Virus record (IMG/VR): IMGVR_UViG_2675903330_000005
Location: 1-23,430 of that record
Direction: 5' to 3' (one strand)
From: a virus
Lineage: Duplodnaviria; Heunggongvirae; Uroviricota; Caudoviricetes
DNA length: 23,430 nucleotides
Shown here: positions 2,005 to 9,845 of the stretch, in pieces
How positions within the stretch are numbered: position 1 is the stretch's first letter
How the letters are laid out: each line of letters begins with the position of its first letter
Program-made: the position numbers and the translations under genes
The notes under the pieces: generated by a model
What the model saw: only the letters and a program-made list of their open reading frames with translations
What the model was told of the DNA's origin: nothing
Databases searched by the model: none

Positions 2005-2033
2005 TTGACGATTTCACTGTGCGATCGTATGTT
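2005..2033 (+). promoter_or_regulatory. Candidate rightward lytic promoter (pR-like): -35 TTGACG, 17-bp spacer, -10 TATGTT
   Basis: Sigma70-like hexamers with optimal spacing in the cI/apl intergenic switch region, about 70 bp upstream of the apl ATG. Confidence 0.4.
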
Positions 2034-2105
2034 TATGGTGTTCACAAAATACAAACGATCCGTATTCGTCCTGATTAATCATCATTAAACGAGGAATGTT
2101 GCATC

Positions 2106-2327
2106 ATGAGACCTAACATTTCAATCACTCTTACCACCCCTCATGTGACTATTGAACGCTATAGCGAGCTGACAGGGCTATCCATCGATACCATCAATGA
2201 CATGTTGGCTGATGGACGCCTTATCCGTCACCGACTGCGCAAAGATAAAAAACGCGAAAAAGTGATGATCAACATAGCAGCAATGACCGTTGATGCGCTT
2301 TCAGAATGCAATCTAAACCTTAATTAG
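2106..2327 (+). CDS. apl: Apl/Cox-type excisionase and transcriptional regulator (small HTH protein)
   Basis: 73-aa protein, first gene of the rightward operon opposite cI; HTH-like segment [23 protein letters not shown]; positional equivalent of 186 apl / P2 cox. Confidence 0.6.
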
Positions 2328-2359
2328 TTCGATTCTGAAATACATCAGAGGCATTGACC

Positions 2360-2869
2360 ATGTTTGATTACCAAGTTTCCAAACATCCACATTTTGATGA
2401 AGCCTGTCGTGCATTCGCATTGCGCCACAACCTGGTGCAACTGGCAGAACGTGCTGGCATGAATGTGCAGATTCTGCGGAACAAGTTGAACCCAGCGCAA
2501 CCTCATTTATTAACCGCACCAGAAATCTGGCTGCTTACCGATCTGACTGAAGATTCAACGCTGGTAGATGGTTTTCTGGCTCAGATTCACTGCCTGCCAT
2601 GCGTACCGATTAATGAGGTGGCAAAAGAGAAACTGCCACATTACGTCATGAGTGCAACCGCAGAGATCGGGCGTGTTGCTGCAGGTGCGGTATCTGGCGA
2701 TGTAAAAACCAGTGCAGGTCGTCGTGATGCTATCAGCAGCATTAACTCTGTAACACGACTGATGGCGTTGGCTGCTGTTTCATTGCAGGCCCGTTTACAG
2801 GCTAACCCTGCGATGGCGAGTGCAGTTGATACCGTGACTGGCCTCGGTGCTTCATTCGGTTTGCTGTGA
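2360..2869 (+). CDS. cII: CII-type lysogeny establishment activator (phage 186 CII-like)
   Basis: Sequence [72 protein letters not shown] closely matches the 186 CII protein as I recall it; ATG at 2360 preceded by an AGAGG SD. Confidence 0.85.
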
Positions 2870-2876
2870 GGTGCTT

Positions 2877-3077
2877 ATGCTGACGAAAGAACCATCATTT
2901 GCATCGCTGCTGGTAAAGCAAAGCCCGGCAATGCACTACGGTCACGGCTGGATCATGGGTGAGGATGGAAAACGCTGGCATCCGTGCCGTTCACAAGATG
3001 AATTGCTGGCAGAACTATCTACGAAAAAACGGGGGAACAAATGGCTATTGAAGGCGCTGCGGCGACTGTTCCATTAA
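2877..3077 (+). CDS. Small early protein (positional equivalent of 186 fil); function not assignable
   Basis: ATG at 2877 with GAGGTG SD immediately after the cII stop; 66 aa. Confidence 0.4.
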   Translation: MLTKEPSFASLLVKQSPAMHYGHGWIMGEDGKRWHPCRSQDELLAELSTKKRGNKWLLKALRRLFH

Positions 3078-3382
3078 GACCCGGTGAACGCCTGAATGGA
3101 CTTAATCATATTGCGGAGTTAAGGGCGAAAGTTTTTGGTTTGAATATTGAGTCAGAGCTTGAGCGGTTTATTAAAGATATGCGTGATCCACGGGATATCA
3201 ATAATGAACAAAATAAACGGGCACTGGCTGCCATATTCTTTATGGCAAAAATTCCAGCTGAACGTCATAGCATCAGCATTAATGAGCTGACCACTGACGA
3301 AAAGCGGGAGTTGATTAAAGCAATGAATCATTTTCGTGCAGTGGTGAGCTTATTTCCCAGACGGCTAACCATGCCGAACTAA
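3041..3382 (+). CDS. Hypothetical early-region protein, 113 aa
   Basis: ORF with a GGGGGA SD-like sequence upstream; overlaps the 3' end of the preceding ORF; no recognisable motif. Confidence 0.4.
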   Translation: MAIEGAAATVPLRPGERLNGLNHIAELRAKVFGLNIESELERFIKDMRDPRDINNEQNKRALAAIFFMAKIPAERHSISINELTTDEKRELIKAMNHFRAVVSLFPRRLTMPN

Positions 3383-3449
3383 CCAACTAATGAAATTAAT
3401 GGCGTAAACCCGCCGGGCATCCCTTTATCTAAATTCAGGAGAATTGCTT

Positions 3450-3683
3450 ATGCGTAATATTGAAACCCTCACGACCAAAACCGGACCGGATGATGCAGGT
3501 CTTAATCTTTTACTGACAGAGGCTCGTCTGGAAGAACGCCGGGCAAGGGCTGAAGCAATGGCTGCTCGCCTCGATAGCCTGGCGTGTCATATCACCTCCC
3601 GCCAGCTAAACCACGTCGAAGCGGCAGAACTGCTGCGTGTGACTGCTGAAGCAATCCAGAACGAAGCGCAGGAGATCCACTGA
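3450..3683 (+). CDS. Hypothetical early-region protein, 77 aa, predicted coiled-coil/helical
   Basis: ATG at 3450 with AGGAGA SD 7 nt upstream; its stop overlaps the next gene's start (TGATG). Confidence 0.45.
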   Translation: MRNIETLTTKTGPDDAGLNLLLTEARLEERRARAEAMAARLDSLACHITSRQLNHVEAAELLRVTAEAIQNEAQEIH

Positions 3684-3910
3684 TGGCTGATGCAATGGAT
3701 CTCGTACAGCAGCGCGTTGAAGAAGAACGCCAACGCCATATCCGTGCTGCCCGTGCCAAAACGCCGGGCGTGTCCCGCGTGCTTTGCGTTGAGTGTGAAG
3801 CGCCAATTCCGCCAGCACGCCGCCGTGCCATTCCTGGAGTGCAGCTTTGCATTACCTGCCAGGAAATCGCAGAGCTGAAAGGCAAACATTACAACGGAGG
3901 TGCTGTATGA
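3683..3910 (+). CDS. TraR/DksA-family C4 zinc-finger protein (P2 orf82-like)
   Basis: CxxC...CxxC arrangement (..LCVECEAPIP..LCITCQE..) in a 75-aa protein; typical position in the P2-like early operon. Confidence 0.7.
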   Translation: MADAMDLVQQRVEEERQRHIRAARAKTPGVSRVLCVECEAPIPPARRRAIPGVQLCITCQEIAELKGKHYNGGAV

Positions 3911-4764
3911 GCACCATCCTGAAATGGGCGGGTAATAAAACCGCCATTATGTCCGAACTGAAAAAATACCTTCCTGCTGGCCCGCGACTGGTTGAACCTT
4001 TCGCGGGTTCTTGTGCTGTGATGATGGCGACGGATTACCCCAGCTATCTGGTTGCGGATATTAATCCTGATTTAATCAACCTCTATAAAAAGATTGCCGC
4101 TGATTGCGAAGCGTTTATATCTCGTGCCAAAGTTTTATTTGAGGAAGCAAACAGTGAGCTGGCTTATTACAACATAAGACAGGAGTTTAATTACTCAACT
4201 GAAATTACTGATTTCATGAAGGCGATATATTTCCTGTATCTCAATCGTCACGGTTACCGTGGTTTATGTCGCTATAACAAGAGCGGGTATTTCAACATTC
4301 CCTACGGTAATTATAAAAATCCGTATTTCCCTGAAAAAGAAATTCGCGCATTTGCAGAGAAAGCCCAGCGGGCAACGTTTATCTGCGCGAGCTTTGATGA
4401 AACGCTGGCGATGCTGCAGGTGGGGGATGTGGTGTATTGCGATCCGCCGTATGACGGTACGTTTTCCGGCTATCACACTGATGGTTTCACTGAAGATGAC
4501 CAGTATCACCTGGCATCCATTCTTGAACATCGGTCATCAGAAGGACATCCGGTCATTGTTTCTAACAATGACACATCCCTGATTCGTTCGCTGTATCGCA
4601 ATTTTACTCACCACTATATCAAGGCAAAACGCAGCATCGGCGTGTCAGCTGGCGAGGGTAAATCTGCAACAGAAATCATTGCTGTTTCCGGGCCGAGCTG
4701 CTGGTTGGGATTTGATCCTTCGCGTGGCGTGGATAGTTCTGCCGTGTACGGAGTGTGTGTATGA
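3907..4764 (+). CDS. dam: DNA adenine methyltransferase (Dam-like, GATC N6-adenine MTase)
   Basis: N-terminal LKWAGNK and FAGSCAV (AdoMet-binding) motifs plus catalytic DPPY motif (..[11 protein letters not shown]..); start ATGA-overlaps the upstream stop. Confidence 0.9.
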
Positions 4765-7175
4765 GTCATGACGATATGAACAATTGCAGCGGCTTTAACG
4801 AGGCCGCCGCAGCATTTTCATGGAACGGCTCGAAAAAGGCCATTAACCCTTATCTGGACCCGGCGGAAGTTGCGCCGGAGTCTGCACTTTCAAACCTGAT
4901 CACTCTGTACGCTGCCGATAACGAGCAGGAACAACTGCGCCGCGAGGCACTGAGTGAGCAGGTCTGGGAGCGTTATTTCTTTAATGAATCCCGTGATCCT
5001 GTCCAGCGCGAAATGGAGCAGGATAAGCTCATTAGCCGGGCAAAGCTGGCGCATGAGCAGCAGCGTTTTAATCCGGACATGGTCATTCTGGCGGACGTAA
5101 ACGCCCAGCCTTCCCATATCAGCAAGCCGCTGATGCAACGTATTGAATACTTCAGCAGCCTGGGCAGGCCAAAGGCTTATTCCCGCTATTTGCGTGAGAC
5201 GATTAAGCCATGTCTGGAGCGACTGGATTGTGTACGTGACAGTCAGCTATCTGTTTCTTTCCGTTTTATGGCAAGCCATCAAGGGCTGGAGGGTCTGCTG
5301 ATCCTGCCTGAAATGAGCCAGGATCAGGTGAAACGCCTGTCCACCCTGGTAGCAGCGCATATGAGCATGTGTCTTGAGGACGCTTGTGGTGATTTGTATG
5401 CCACCGATGACGTTAAGCCAGAAGAAATCCGCAAGACATGGGAAAAGGTGGCAGCGGAAACCCTGCGTCTGGATGTTATCCCGCCTGCGTTTGAGAAACT
5501 TCGTCGGAAAAGAAACCGCCGCAAACCAGTGCCCTATGAACTCATCCCGGGTTCGCTGGCGCGTATGTTGTGTGCCGACTGGTGGTATCGGAAATTATGG
5601 AAGATGCGTTGCGAATGGCGGGAAGAGCAGTTGCGTGCTGTCTGCCTGGTCAGCAAAAAAGCATCCCCCTATGTCAGCTATGAAGCCGTGATGCATAAAC
5701 GTGAGCAGCGCCGTAAGTCGCTGGAGTTTTTTCGTTCTCATGAACTGGTGAACGAAGACGGCGACACGCTGGATATGGAAGATGTGGTAAACGCCAGCAG
5801 CAGCAACCCGGCGCATCGCCGCAATGAGATGATGGCCTGTGTTAAAGGTCTGGAGCTTATCGCGGAAATGCGCAGTGACTGTGCCGTTTTCTACACTATC
5901 ACCTGTCCGTCGCGTTTCCATTCCACGCTCAATAACGGCAGACCAAACCCGACCTGGACAAACGCGACGGTAAGACAAAGTAGCGATTATCTGGTCGGCA
6001 TGTTTGCTGCATTTCGTAAGGCTATGCATAAAGCCGAGTTGCGCTGGTATGGCGTGCGGGTAGCTGAGCCGCATCATGACGGTACTGTGCACTGGCATCT
6101 CATGTGTTTCATGCGTAAAAAAGACCGCCGCGCCATCACTGCATTACTGCGTAAGTTTGCCATCCGTGAAGACCGCGAGGAGCTGGGCAATAACACGGGA
6201 CCACGCTTTAAGTCTGAGCTGATAAACCCGCGCAAAGGTACGCCAACAAGCTATATCGCGAAATACATCAGTAAGAACATTGACGGGCGTGGTCTGGCTG
6301 GGGAGATCAGCAAGGAAACGGGTAAATCCCTGCGTGATAACGCTGAATACGTTAATGCCTGGGCGTCTCTGCATCGTGTTCAGCAATTCCGCTTCTTTGG
6401 CATTCCGGGGCGTCAGGCTTACCGTGAACTGCGATTGCTGGCTGGTCAGGCGGCAAGGCAACAGGGTGACAAAAAAGCAGGTGCGCCGGTACTGGATAAC
6501 CCGCGCCTTGATGCAATCCTGGCTGCTGCTGATGCTGGTTGTTTTGCCACCTACATCATGAAGCAGGGCGGCGTACTGGTTCCCCGCAAATATCACCTCA
6601 TCAGAACTGCTTATGAAATCAACGAAGAACCGACCGCATATGGCGATCACGGTATTCGTATTTATGGCATCTGGTCACCCATTGCAGAGGGCAAGATCTG
6701 CACTCATGCGGTGAAGTGGAAAATGGTTCGTAAGGCCGTTGACGTTCAGGAGGCGGCAGCCGACCAGGGCGCTTGCGCCCCTTGGACTCGTGGCAATAAC
6801 TGTCCCCTTGCTGAAAATTTGAACCAACAGGAGAAAGATAAATCAACAGATGGGGATCCCAGAACTGACATTACCTGTATGGATGACAAGGAGTTGCACG
6901 ATTACCTGCACAGTATGAGCAAAAAAGAGCGCCAGGAACTGGCAGCAAGATTACGCCTGATGAAACCGAAACGGCGTAAAGACTACAAACAGCGAATTAC
7001 AGAGTATCAGCGTCAGCAGCTCGTCTATGAACTGAAGTCAAGAGGATTTGATGGCAGCGAGAAAGAGGTCGATTTGCTCCTTCGCGGTGGCAGTATTCCG
7101 TCAGGAGCAGGCCTGCGTATCTTCTATCGGAACCAGCGTTTGCAGGAAGATGATAAGTGGCGGAACCTGTATTAA
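4761..7175 (+). CDS. A: Replication initiation endonuclease gpA (HUH rolling-circle initiator)
   Basis: About 804 aa; HUH motif ..[10 protein letters not shown].. and tyrosine pair ..[10 protein letters not shown].. characteristic of P2 gpA; start overlaps dam stop (ATGA). Confidence 0.9.
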
Positions 7176-7266
7176 TCACGTGGGTTAACAATTCGTGCTC
7201 TTAATAATACCAGGCATATCAGGCTGATGAACGTAAAAAACGTTTTACATCAGTAAGATTATTATA

Positions 7267-7286
7267 TACTGTAAATATAAACAGTG
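7267..7286. promoter_or_regulatory. Candidate LexA (SOS) box: TACTGTAAATATAAACAGTG (CTGT-N8-ACAG)
   Basis: Match to the LexA consensus TACTGT(AT)4ACAGTA core, overlapping a -10-like TATAAA/TATACT region about 45 bp upstream of a small ORF with a consensus SD. Confidence 0.55.
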
Positions 7287-7327
7287 GTTGTGCATACAGT
7301 GTTGCTTGTGGTGTCATAGGAGGAAAG

Positions 7328-7498
7328 ATGCAGGACTATTTTTTGGAGTCTTTGAAGCTCCAGCGCATTGATTTTTTTCTTAAGCTTGTGGCGGCTAGTG
7401 AGTGTAGTGATGAAGAGAAGGGGCTGGCTCTGCAGTGGGTTTCTGAGTTGACTGATGAGCTGATGGCGAGAATTCGCGCTCATGAATACAACCACTAG
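7328..7498 (+). CDS. Small 56-aa ORF downstream of the LexA box; candidate SOS-inducible Tum-like antirepressor or small regulator
   Basis: ATG preceded by a perfect AGGAGG SD at optimal spacing; not in the supplied ORF track (under 60 aa); translates to MQDYFLESLKLQRIDFFLKLVAASECSDEEKGLALQWVSELTDELMARIRAHEYNH. Confidence 0.35.
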   Translation: MQDYFLESLKLQRIDFFLKLVAASECSDEEKGLALQWVSELTDELMARIRAHEYNH

Positions 7499-7671
7499 AT
7501 GGATCTTCCCAGTAGTTTTTCGAAACTGAAAACAACCGAGTGAAAGTTACGACACTTGAGATTTTCACTTGGGTTATAATCAGAATACTTGTTTTCGTCC
7601 ACAAATGTACATGCCATGCATTAATGTGGTGATAGCTTTCAATTTTTACTAAATGGTTTCAATTGCTTCTT

Positions 7672-8217
7672 ATGAATCATGTAATGTTAGATATAGAAAC
7701 ATTGGATGTTGAAAAAACAGCTTATATCCTTTCAGTTGGTGCGGCTTTTTTCGTGCCGGAGACTGGCGAGATTGGTCCGGGTTTCTATCAAGTTATTTCG
7801 CTTGATCATGAACAAGCAGGCAGAACCATTGCCCCCTCTACTGTAAAGTGGTGGATGAATCAAAGTACTGAAGCTAAAAACGAAAATTTTGATGGCACTA
7901 AGGACCTTTTAGAGGTTCTGAATGAATTTGTGGCATTTATTCTTCATAATCGTACTGGCCGAGTAAAAGTGTGGGGAAACGGGAAAGAGTTTGACTGCAC
8001 GATCATGCATCATGCCCTGTTACAGGCGGGTCTGGATTGCCCATGGTCATTCAGAGATACTCTTGACGTTAGAACCATCTTAGCACTTGGTGAAAGCAAA
8101 GGAATTTTTTCTCATGCTGATAAAAATTTCACTGGCATTAGGCACACAGCATTCGATGATGTTTTATTTCAGATCGCACAGGTTTCTCACATCTATATGA
8201 ATTTAAATAAAAAATAA
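7672..8217 (+). CDS. DEDDh-type 3'-5' exonuclease (DnaQ-like fold), about 181 aa
   Basis: Exo I motif VMLDIETLD, Exo II-like ..VWGNGKEFDCTIM.., Exo III motif ..HTAFDDVLFQI..; first gene of the AT-rich cargo cassette; start codon uncertain (7663 TTG / 7672 ATG / 7684 ATG). Confidence 0.7.
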   Translation: MNHVMLDIETLDVEKTAYILSVGAAFFVPETGEIGPGFYQVISLDHEQAGRTIAPSTVKWWMNQSTEAKNENFDGTKDLLEVLNEFVAFILHNRTGRVKVWGNGKEFDCTIMHHALLQAGLDCPWSFRDTLDVRTILALGESKGIFSHADKNFTGIRHTAFDDVLFQIAQVSHIYMNLNKK

Positions 8218-8232
8218 ATATAGGACTTAGCT

Positions 8233-9144
8233 ATGGATTGCTTAGATGTAACCTATTGGACTGAGCTAGATGTTTTCGCACAGTATCCTGTTGGTGCTCG
8301 CTCTAAGGCATTGGTTATTTCCCCTGATGTTGCCCCCCATGGTATCAAAGCATCGTGGCCGTATCTTTTTAAGAGAAGCATTAAAAAATACCCAGATCAA
8401 TTTTGGTGTGAGATCGTTGCCTACAGGATTGGATTGCAGCTTGGTTTTAATGTCCCCAAAGCAGTTCCTTCGTTAAAGACTAATGATTTGGGGCATACGT
8501 TTTGCGGGGCCCTCATTGAGTGGTTTCATCATAAAGATTATGAGAAATTTGCTCCCGCTGGTGATTACTTTGTTCGAAGAGATCCAAATTTTGATCGTGA
8601 GAAAGGAGCTAAGCATTCCATTGAAGGGCTGAGGATTATCGCGAAAGCTCTTAAAGTTGACTATGTTGAGTGGTTGGAGAATATGGCTCTCTTTGACGCA
8701 GTAATAGGTAATACAGATAGACATCAAGAAAACTGGGGGTTTATCTTCTCACCTTTAACCAGCGAGTGTCAGCTTGCACCATTTTTCGATAATGGTACGA
8801 GCTTATGCTACGAACGTTTTCCGGAACATGTTGCTGATTGGACCGATCATAGACTCAGGGAGCATGTTAGCCGGGGAAAGCATCATTTGCGTAAGACTCT
8901 GGGCAAAGATGAGTATCAGAGATTAGGTCATTTAGAGTTAATCAAAGAACTTTGTGATAAAAAAGAAGAATTAAAACAGCGGGTAGCTGAAAGACTGGCT
9001 CGTTTGAACCATGACTTTTGGGACTCAACTTTTGCGGAGTTGACGGAAATAAACTGCCCTGTTCCGCTGACTAGAGAACGTGCTGCATGGATTGTTCGTG
9101 TAACAAACATGCGTATTGAACTGATTAAAGGTGTTACTTCATGA
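8233..9144 (+). CDS. HipA-family serine/threonine kinase, short HipT-like form lacking the HipA N-terminal subdomain
   Basis: P-loop-like ..VGARSKALVIS.. (cf. HipA VAGAQEKTAL), ..WCEIVAYRIGLQLGFNVP.. (cf. HipA YCLLLAKELGLNVP), catalytic loop ..VIGNTDRHQENWGF.. (cf. HipA IGATDGHAKNFS) and Mg-binding ..LAPFFDNGTS.. (cf. HipA LTPFYDIIS); 303 aa. Confidence 0.8.
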   Translation: MDCLDVTYWTELDVFAQYPVGARSKALVISPDVAPHGIKASWPYLFKRSIKKYPDQFWCEIVAYRIGLQLGFNVPKAVPSLKTNDLGHTFCGALIEWFHHKDYEKFAPAGDYFVRRDPNFDREKGAKHSIEGLRIIAKALKVDYVEWLENMALFDAVIGNTDRHQENWGFIFSPLTSECQLAPFFDNGTSLCYERFPEHVADWTDHRLREHVSRGKHHLRKTLGKDEYQRLGHLELIKELCDKKEELKQRVAERLARLNHDFWDSTFAELTEINCPVPLTRERAAWIVRVTNMRIELIKGVTS

Positions 9145-9845
9145 CTATCTTAATAGAAAAAATTCCCATGCCAAGTAGGCTCTTACTGACATGGCAACCG
9201 ACCGACGGCGGCTCTCGCTATGTCGTTGGTGAACTTCTTCAAGATGAGTCTGAAGGCTACGAGTTTAATTATCTTACGGATAGCAAAGATTTTGCTAAAG
9301 CTGTGGATAAAGGCTTTCACGGTTTTCCTGCTTTTGACATAAAAGTTACGACTCATCGCAAAGACGTTATGCAAACCTTTTCAAGAAGGTTACCCTCTAG
9401 GAAAAGAGAAGATTTTGCCGATTACTTGCTGACGTTTCGTCTTCCTGCTGATTTTAGAGAGAATGACTTCGTTTTGCTCGCTTGTACTGGCGGAAAAGTG
9501 GCTAGTGATGGTTTTTATTTTGTCCCAGACTTGTCTTCTATTCGGCCACCTTTTGATTATGTCATGGAGGTCGCCGGAACGAGACACATGATTAAGGAAG
9601 GGCGTCTAGCTCTTGACGAGATATCAATTGGTGATGAAGTCATATTGCGCAATGAAGATACCAATACTGTTGATCCGCTGGCCATATTAGTAACGAAAAA
9701 CGACAATCATCTAGGATATGTCAACAAGGCATTGTGCGCCGCATTACGAGATCTTGGTAAAAACCATGATATCAGTGGAGTGGTCGTACGTAAAAATGGC
9801 TCTTCGGATAGGCCTTTGATTTATGCAAAAGTATCTGTTAGATGA
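9141..9845 (+). CDS. Two-domain protein: N-terminal HipA-N-subdomain-like (HipS-like) region fused to a C-terminal HIRAN-like domain
   Basis: N-term ..LLLTWQPTDGGSRYVVGELLQDESEGYEFNY.. resembles the HipA N-terminus (..LVTWMNNQRVGELTKLANGAHTFKY..); C-term ..DEVILRNEDTNTVDPLAILVTKNDNHLGYVNKALCAAL.. fits the HIRAN pattern; start ATGA-overlaps the kinase stop. Confidence 0.55.
   Translation: MTILIEKIPMPSRLLLTWQPTDGGSRYVVGELLQDESEGYEFNYLTDSKDFAKAVDKGFHGFPAFDIKVTTHRKDVMQTFSRRLPSRKREDFADYLLTFRLPADFRENDFVLLACTGGKVASDGFYFVPDLSSIRPPFDYVMEVAGTRHMIKEGRLALDEISIGDEVILRNEDTNTVDPLAILVTKNDNHLGYVNKALCAALRDLGKNHDISGVVVRKNGSSDRPLIYAKVSVR

Follow-up and report, generated by a model that had tools for sequence, protein, structure and literature searches.

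For what reason would a temperate phage bring along a Dam methylase when its host is already Dam-positive? A tractable place to test this general question is provided by IMG/VR virus record IMGVR_UViG_2675903330_000005, whose positions 1 to 23,430 (hereafter the window, the whole stretch of DNA that was analysed) include a gene of the Dam family of DNA methyltransferases, here called dam, lying directly upstream of gpA, the gene for the replication initiator. By homology, these two genes belong to a block that makes up the distal part of an early lytic operon, in a 186-like Peduoviridae prophage of Escherichia coli. The explanation that accounts best for the locus overall, and that we hold with considerable confidence, is that dam encodes a GATC methylase which is translationally coupled within the early operon and which would be made only in lytic growth, together with gpA.

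A chain of four overlapping genes

The block comprises four genes on the same strand:

3450-3683, + strand: DUF2732 gene (77 aa), first in the overlapping chain (PF10809, 4.1e-29)
3683-3910, + strand: gene for a TraR/DksA-family C4 zinc-finger protein, here TraR-like (75 aa; PF01258, 4.4e-11; TIGR02419, 67.1 bits)
3907-4764, + strand: dam, gene for an orphan Dam-family N6-adenine DNA methyltransferase (285 aa; PF02086, TIGR00571)
4761-7175, + strand: gpA, gene for the rolling-circle replication initiator endonuclease (804 aa; PF05840, 1.5e-127)

The TGA of the DUF2732 gene (3681-3683) shares one base with the ATG of the TraR-like gene (3683-3685), forming TGATG at 3681-3685. Read from the sequence, the TraR-like TGA (3908-3910) overlaps the dam ATG (3907-3909) in an ATGA at 3907-3910, and the dam TGA (4762-4764) overlaps the gpA ATG (4761-4763) in a second ATGA at 4761-4764, so that the stop/start overlap expected of coupled pairs is found at all three junctions of the chain. 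The sequence-only reading, which had joined the TraR-like, dam and gpA genes in one coupled unit, was right about both four-base overlaps and about the identity of the three products. The TraR-like protein exceeds the TIGR02419 cutoff of 59.7 bits and carries cysteines 35, 38, 56 and 59 as CxxC...CxxC; gpA, which matches PF05840 with 425.5 bits and is 96% identical to the gpA of Escherichia phage Cartapus, carries HWH (aa 444-446) and YIAKY (aa 498-502), which we take, from what is established for P2 A, to be the HUH metal-binding motif and the paired catalytic tyrosines (YxxxY). The unit itself survives in part: the overlaps and a precedent in phage 186 speak for it, but the chain has four genes rather than three, the DUF2732 gene having been missed.

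Stop/start overlaps permit termination-reinitiation and do not prove coupling. The structure of the TraR-like/dam junction is more telling:

3896-3919, + strand: predicted mRNA hairpin of 9 bp, whose 5′ arm is the dam Shine-Dalgarno (SD) sequence (GGAGGUGCU)

Its loop, GUAUG, contains the start codon of dam along with part of the UGA that ends the TraR-like gene, and its 3′ arm consists of dam codons 2-5. The 50-mer around this junction has a minimum free energy of -17.4 kcal/mol (z-score -2.95), and only 3 of 200 shuffled sequences were equally stable. The hairpin is retained in all 11 distinct junction variants drawn from 84 loci, Fels-2 included; three single substitutions turn G-C into G-U pairing, and in one variant a pair is lost. 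None of the 11 junction variants has a compensatory double change, and the hairpin therefore shows conservation rather than covariation. Translational coupling from the TraR-like gene to dam is thus likely, as judged from this predicted structure, in which the dam ribosome-binding site would be locked until a ribosome arrives from upstream.

The dam/gpA junction presents a different case. Here the fold is no better than that of shuffled sequences (z = +0.77), which weighs against obligate coupling; with an SD of its own and no predicted structure to occlude it, gpA could initiate independently, and any coupling at this step need not be obligate. The overlaps might then reflect genome compaction, with each gene starting independently and with no functional coupling at least between dam and gpA, an account that we consider somewhat unlikely. 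In keeping with it, all four starts have a good SD at normal spacing (CAGGAG, AGGAG, GGAGG and GGAG, in gene order). Moreover, in a related prophage with about 27 same-strand junctions, five are 4-nt and four are 1-nt overlaps. Short overlaps are indeed the normal packing of P2-like operons and, since 1-nt and 4-nt overlaps are routine there, the dam/gpA overlap is nothing special or distinctive. Against compaction, in addition to the predicted sequestration of the dam SD in a conserved hairpin, stands the record of phage 186, in which translation of the A protein apparently requires that orf84 be translated to its end, and which places a terminator (tM1), acting when A is untranslated, just inside A. 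The 186 orf84 is non-essential and overlaps A by 4 nt, and dam fills the matching position in the window. By this analogy, coupling of gpA to dam is plausible. Inside gpA, the terminator scan flagged no counterpart of tM1, and only a weak GCGGC/GCCGC hairpin with no proper T-tail was seen. Literature searches on 186 orf84 coupling and on STM2730, the Fels-2 homologue of dam, returned nothing useful.

The behaviour of the junction among relatives also speaks against simple compaction. ATGA is present at dam/gpA in 81 of 83 related loci (Dam 73-100% identical), and the remaining two, Fels-2 and the Klebsiella phage ST258-KPC3phi16.1, have GTGA at the dam stop. In the ST258-KPC3phi16.1 record gpA begins at the GTG of this GTGA, so that the 4-nt overlap with dam is preserved despite the changed start codon; the Fels-2 record annotates the gpA start 10 nt into dam. 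In the window, an alternative upstream GTG for gpA appears in the open reading frame (ORF) listing at 4755, and homologues are annotated from the ATG.

The third junction, between the DUF2732 and TraR-like genes, folds with z = -1.37, which is not significant. An 8-bp inverted repeat lies within 3671-3705, with arms GAGATCCA...TGGATCTC and a GATC in each arm (3674 and 3698); both the stop codon of the DUF2732 gene and the start codon of the TraR-like gene fall within it, and some of the TraR-like SD is base-paired.

Comparison with 186 and P2 indicates what kind of gene dam is. Both phages have, between the zinc-finger gene and A, a non-essential gene that overlaps A (186 orf84, P2 orf83). However, the 186 slot holds exonuclease-like, DUF5405 and PAPS-reductase-like genes and the P2 slot holds DUF5405, with no methylase in either. 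The dam gene is an accessory cassette, the slot being filled differently in P2 and 186. In 186 the zinc-finger/orf81 junction (~2870-2915) has a hairpin resembling that of the window, together with identical first codons (ATGAGCA...), but the downstream gene is a different, exonuclease-like one. Since the hairpin and first codons are common to 186 and the window, the cassette boundary may fall just inside the gene downstream of the zinc-finger gene.

Identity and specificity of the methyltransferase

The assignment of the dam product to the Dam family, as the sequence-only reading had proposed, is well supported. The protein matches PF02086 (MethyltransfD12) over residues 7-244 and the entire profile (positions 1-253 of 253) at 2.4e-75 and 254 bits (cutoff 22), NCBIfam model TIGR00571 ('Dam family') at 1.2e-94 and 317 bits (cutoff 114.85), and the E. 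coli Dam structures in PDB (2G1P, 4GOL) at 5.3e-73. A MAFFT alignment gives 46.5% identity to E. coli Dam (EcoDam) across the whole fold. Motif I (F32-A-G34-S-C36) precedes motif IV (D179-P-P-Y182), the order of the alpha class; the third G of motif I is replaced by C, a change shared by three Dams among the four more distant Peduoviridae sequences compared. The window protein thus shares with the host Dam of E. coli the alpha-class D12 fold over its full length, motif I and DPPY, and differs in being phage-borne, in belonging to a lytic operon and in a C-terminal extension of about 20 residues. No gene for a restriction nuclease adjoins dam, whose neighbours are the TraR-like gene and gpA, as expected of an orphan enzyme; the best PADLOC model for the protein is likewise 'orphan methyltransferase' (oMTase; 1e-109).

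The residues through which EcoDam reads its site provide the evidence on specificity. In EcoDam, R124 is in contact with guanine and L122 and P134 with the neighbouring base pair; Y119 intercalates, N120 forms a hydrogen bond with a base, and the first base pair is read by K9 together with Y138 (PMC4417163). When this set (K9, Y119, N120, L122, R124, P134 and Y138) was compared with the window Dam, six of the seven GATC-contact residues were found to be kept, as K6, Y117, L120, R122, P132 and Y136. Several features weigh on the other side. The base-contacting N120 is R118 in the window Dam clade, R137 of EcoDam is N135, and a five-residue loop directly after DPPY is absent. The three changes are common to the Dams of Cartapus, Fels-2 and the Klebsiella phage and are absent from four other Peduoviridae Dams and from the P7 Dam; N120 and the post-DPPY loop are kept in all the other Dams compared. 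The status of the changes as specific to the clade holds among the Dam sequences compared only. In addition, the protein scores 284.1 bits against the host-Dam equivalog model NF008152 (PRK10904), below its threshold of 441, and is therefore to be called a Dam-family enzyme rather than an orthologue of chromosomal Dam. On balance, the conserved contact residues and the 1990 report by Hsu, Inouye and Inouye (PNAS 87:9454), the title of which gives 'Dam methylase function' for the retron-Ec67 element, make it likely that the window Dam methylates the adenine of GATC.

The changes in the clade may be given more weight in two ways. In the first, they are joined with the observations on the slot: the slot would be an exchangeable cassette site gated by an SD-occluding hairpin that survives replacement of the gene, and the Dam clade, with its N120R change and short loop, would have a phage-specific property beyond what host Dam can supply, for example a specificity that is relaxed or extended, or a preferred substrate in rolling-circle, single-stranded or hemimethylated DNA. 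The dam gene is under purifying selection, with a ratio of non-synonymous to synonymous substitution rates (dN/dS) of 0.14-0.31 as compared to 0.08-0.09 for gpA, and such a property, if true, would explain why selection maintains it in phages of Dam-positive hosts. We regard this combined reading as improbable. In the second, the enzyme has the Dam fold but, through N120R and the loss of the loop, would have drifted away from GATC towards a relaxed or different specificity. Drift would agree with R118, N135 and the five missing residues, with the confinement of all three to the window clade among the Dams compared, and with the score under the host-Dam cutoff. It is nevertheless quite improbable, as K9, Y119, L122, R124, P134 and Y138 are all retained, identity to EcoDam is ~47% across the whole fold, and the similar prophage known as the Ec67 element was reported, by title, with a Dam function.

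Expression and role of the phage Dam

If dam encodes a GATC methylase, the next matter is when it would be made. The features that bear on this lie upstream of the chain:

1411-1986, - strand: CI repressor gene (PF07022, PF16452)
2005-2033, + strand: promoter-like site TTGACG-17-TATGTT (pattern scan; consensus match only)

The promoter-like site separates the CI repressor gene from the early genes, a position that matches 186 pR, and it is likely to be the counterpart of 186 pR, driving an early operon that would include dam and gpA. From the divergent CI gene onwards the order is CII, Fil, DUF5347 and DUF2732 (PF06892, PF10893, PF17282, PF10809), the last being homologous to 186 orf79 and P2 orf80; downstream of gpA follow portal, terminase and P2-type capsid and tail ORFs, matched to the annotation of a related prophage. 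The pattern scan found no further + strand promoter-like site beyond 2005-2033 between positions 1900 and 7700, which leaves the CI-repressed early promoter as the only expected source of dam expression. The pR-like site has a GATC in its spacer (2023) and a second GATC follows at 2057; in phage 186 the stretch that matches the 2057 region holds the CI and Apl operators.

Taken together with the homology to 186, whose record places the early operon under pR and CI, these features suggest that the four-gene operon would be transcribed from a CI-repressed early promoter and, because of this repression, that Dam would be made only in lytic growth with gpA. A ribosome ending one gene of the chain would restart on the next, most plausibly at the step from the TraR-like gene to dam. 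That dam is instead a lysogenic-conversion gene, altering host epigenetics or backing up host Dam rather than serving a lytic function, is very improbable: a great many E. coli genomes carry the gene and prophage methylases have sometimes been proposed, in general statements, to act on the host (PMC4659465), but dam lies mid-operon under CI repression and is chained by overlaps to the genes on either side, no + strand promoter-like site was found from 2033 to 7700, and the corresponding operon of 186 is annotated as silent in lysogens.

One candidate for direct expression evidence was considered and dropped. The prophage 'Dam homolog' M.EcoMIV of EC958 was found by reverse transcription PCR to be silent in the lysogen (PMC4659465). 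In the EC958 stretch around the expected EC958_1101, the only prophage 'DNA adenine methylase' is a gene of ~254 aa in a Mu-like transposable prophage and, because this is another lineage and context, M.EcoMIV was not used as evidence for the window dam.

What would a lytic-phase Dam do? Judging from what is generally known of Dam enzymes in phages, the role with the most support would be to methylate progeny DNA completely at GATC while it replicates fast. Under the preferred reading, Dam would keep the rolling-circle progeny fully GATC-methylated when host Dam is limiting; full methylation would shield packaged genomes from GATC-cutting, methylation-sensitive restriction in the next host and would avoid MutH-type processing of phage DNA. 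A regulatory role, in which Dam would tune replication or late expression, was also weighed, and for this the origin is of interest:

6766-6803, + strand: stretch within gpA homologous to the P2/186 origin nick region (AGGGCGCTTGCGCCCCTTGGACTCGTGGCAATAACTGT; local alignment to the P2 nick site and the 186 rep_origin)

By this homology, 6766-6803 is probably the origin of the window prophage. It contains no GATC, the nearest being at 6695 and 6855, and direct control of the origin by Dam is therefore unsupported. Over the window as a whole, 88 GATC sites were observed as compared to 91 expected from base composition or 111 from a Markov model and, since the ratio of 0.79 falls among those of other 4-base palindromes, there is neither avoidance nor enrichment. 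Neither GATC frequency in the window nor the nick homology revealed a cis-target for a regulatory role, which counts against the preferred reading. The most depleted 4-base palindrome in the window is GGCC (54 observed and 104 expected, ratio 0.52), followed by CTAG (0.63).

Relatives and the region after gpA

The gene, its place beside gpA and the overlaps are already annotated in RefSeq and GenBank, in many phages and in more than 1000 E. coli genomes, and the type of element was described between 1990 and 1996; the finding matters little beyond correct annotation and raises no new question. The 3.9-kb stretch has ~95% DNA identity to Klebsiella phage 4LV2017 and Escherichia phage Cartapus (Elveevirus) and ~84% to Fels-2. 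The four-gene order and overlaps are likewise annotated in Cartapus, Fels-2, Klebsiella ST258-KPC3phi16.1 and E. coli CFSAN061762, where the genes are named, for example, 'DNA adenine methylase' and 'replication endonuclease'. The closest known systems are indeed the 'DNA adenine methylase' genes of Elveevirus, Felsduovirus and Gegevirus (Cartapus gp42, WP_000104175.1) and Fels-2 STM2730, which share gene order and overlaps with the window. Dams of prophages of the Fels-2/Cartapus type are 73-100% identical to the window Dam, and Fels-2 and the Klebsiella phage differ from it in the GTGA at dam/gpA and in nothing else material. The DuoHS papers do not discuss the methylase.

The distribution of the gene is broad. 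Of the complete E. coli genomes, 5426 in all, 1241 match the TraR-like/dam stretch (among them B REL606 and strain C), and one related E. coli prophage lies beside rcdA (~19% of the chromosome). The identical Dam protein occurs on at least 1000 contigs. A search of 5.8 billion proteins returned homologues 71-100% identical across Enterobacterales, in Escherichia, Salmonella, Klebsiella, Enterobacter, Citrobacter, Cronobacter and Edwardsiella. In this search the name 'retron EC67' was unused and all sources gave 'DNA adenine methylase'; the Fels-2 record, for its part, likens its Dam homologue to 'retron EC67 DNA adenine methylase'.

This label points to the retron-Ec67 element. The Ec67 Dam is reported to have 285 residues and to complement a dam mutant, and Dodd and Egan reportedly treated the Ec67 element in 1996 as a 186-related prophage. 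Retron Ec67 resides in a 34-kb element with 26-bp direct repeats and an ORF for a Dam methylase; the element was later recognised as a 186-related prophage, and a Klebsiella prophage with a matching gene series has been equated with it (PMC7826664). The window prophage is of this same 186-related, Dam-carrying kind, but it has no retron and carries instead, after gpA, an exonuclease gene and a pair of genes resembling the candidate defence system PDC-M03.

More distant orphan Dam-family enzymes are also found in temperate phages. Those of P1/P7 (Dam/Dmt), Quadragintavirus and Senquatrovirus are only 35-49% identical to the window Dam; in P7, Dam forms the C-terminal domain of a larger protein that late promoters control, and in Quadragintavirus and Senquatrovirus Dam lies upstream of gpA with a Dcm gene in between. 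Across other Peduoviridae genera the place directly upstream of gpA is taken by a divergent Dam (40-52% identical), in some cases accompanied by a Dcm gene. Yersinia phage vB_YenM_42.18 (OM046624.1) has at 3465-4304 an intact, unannotated 279-aa Dam-family ORF that is 52% identical to the window Dam. The record lists small hypothetical ORFs in its place and a gpA start inside it, and the omission is probably a mis-annotation. The 90%-identity cluster of the window gpA also lists 285-aa Dam proteins, and a few database proteins join Dam with gpA or gpD domains; rather than real fusions, these combinations most probably represent prophage copies with frameshifts or rearrangements, or artefacts of clustering.

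A variable region (7663-9845) sits between gpA and the portal gene:

7663-8217, + strand: gene for an Rv2179c-like 3′-5′ exonuclease (PF16473, 5e-50)
8233-9144, + strand: gene for a HipA_C-like kinase (PADLOC PDC-M03A, 4e-36)
9141-9845, + strand: gene for a HIRAN-domain protein (PADLOC PDC-M03B, 1e-36)

The HipA_C-like and HIRAN genes share 4 nt and together match PDC-M03, a candidate defence system in PADLOC. The cargo that relatives carry between gpA and the portal gene differs, including for example DinI-like, ParA and RelA/SpoT-domain genes, and retron Ec67 also resided in an element of the same kind as the window prophage.

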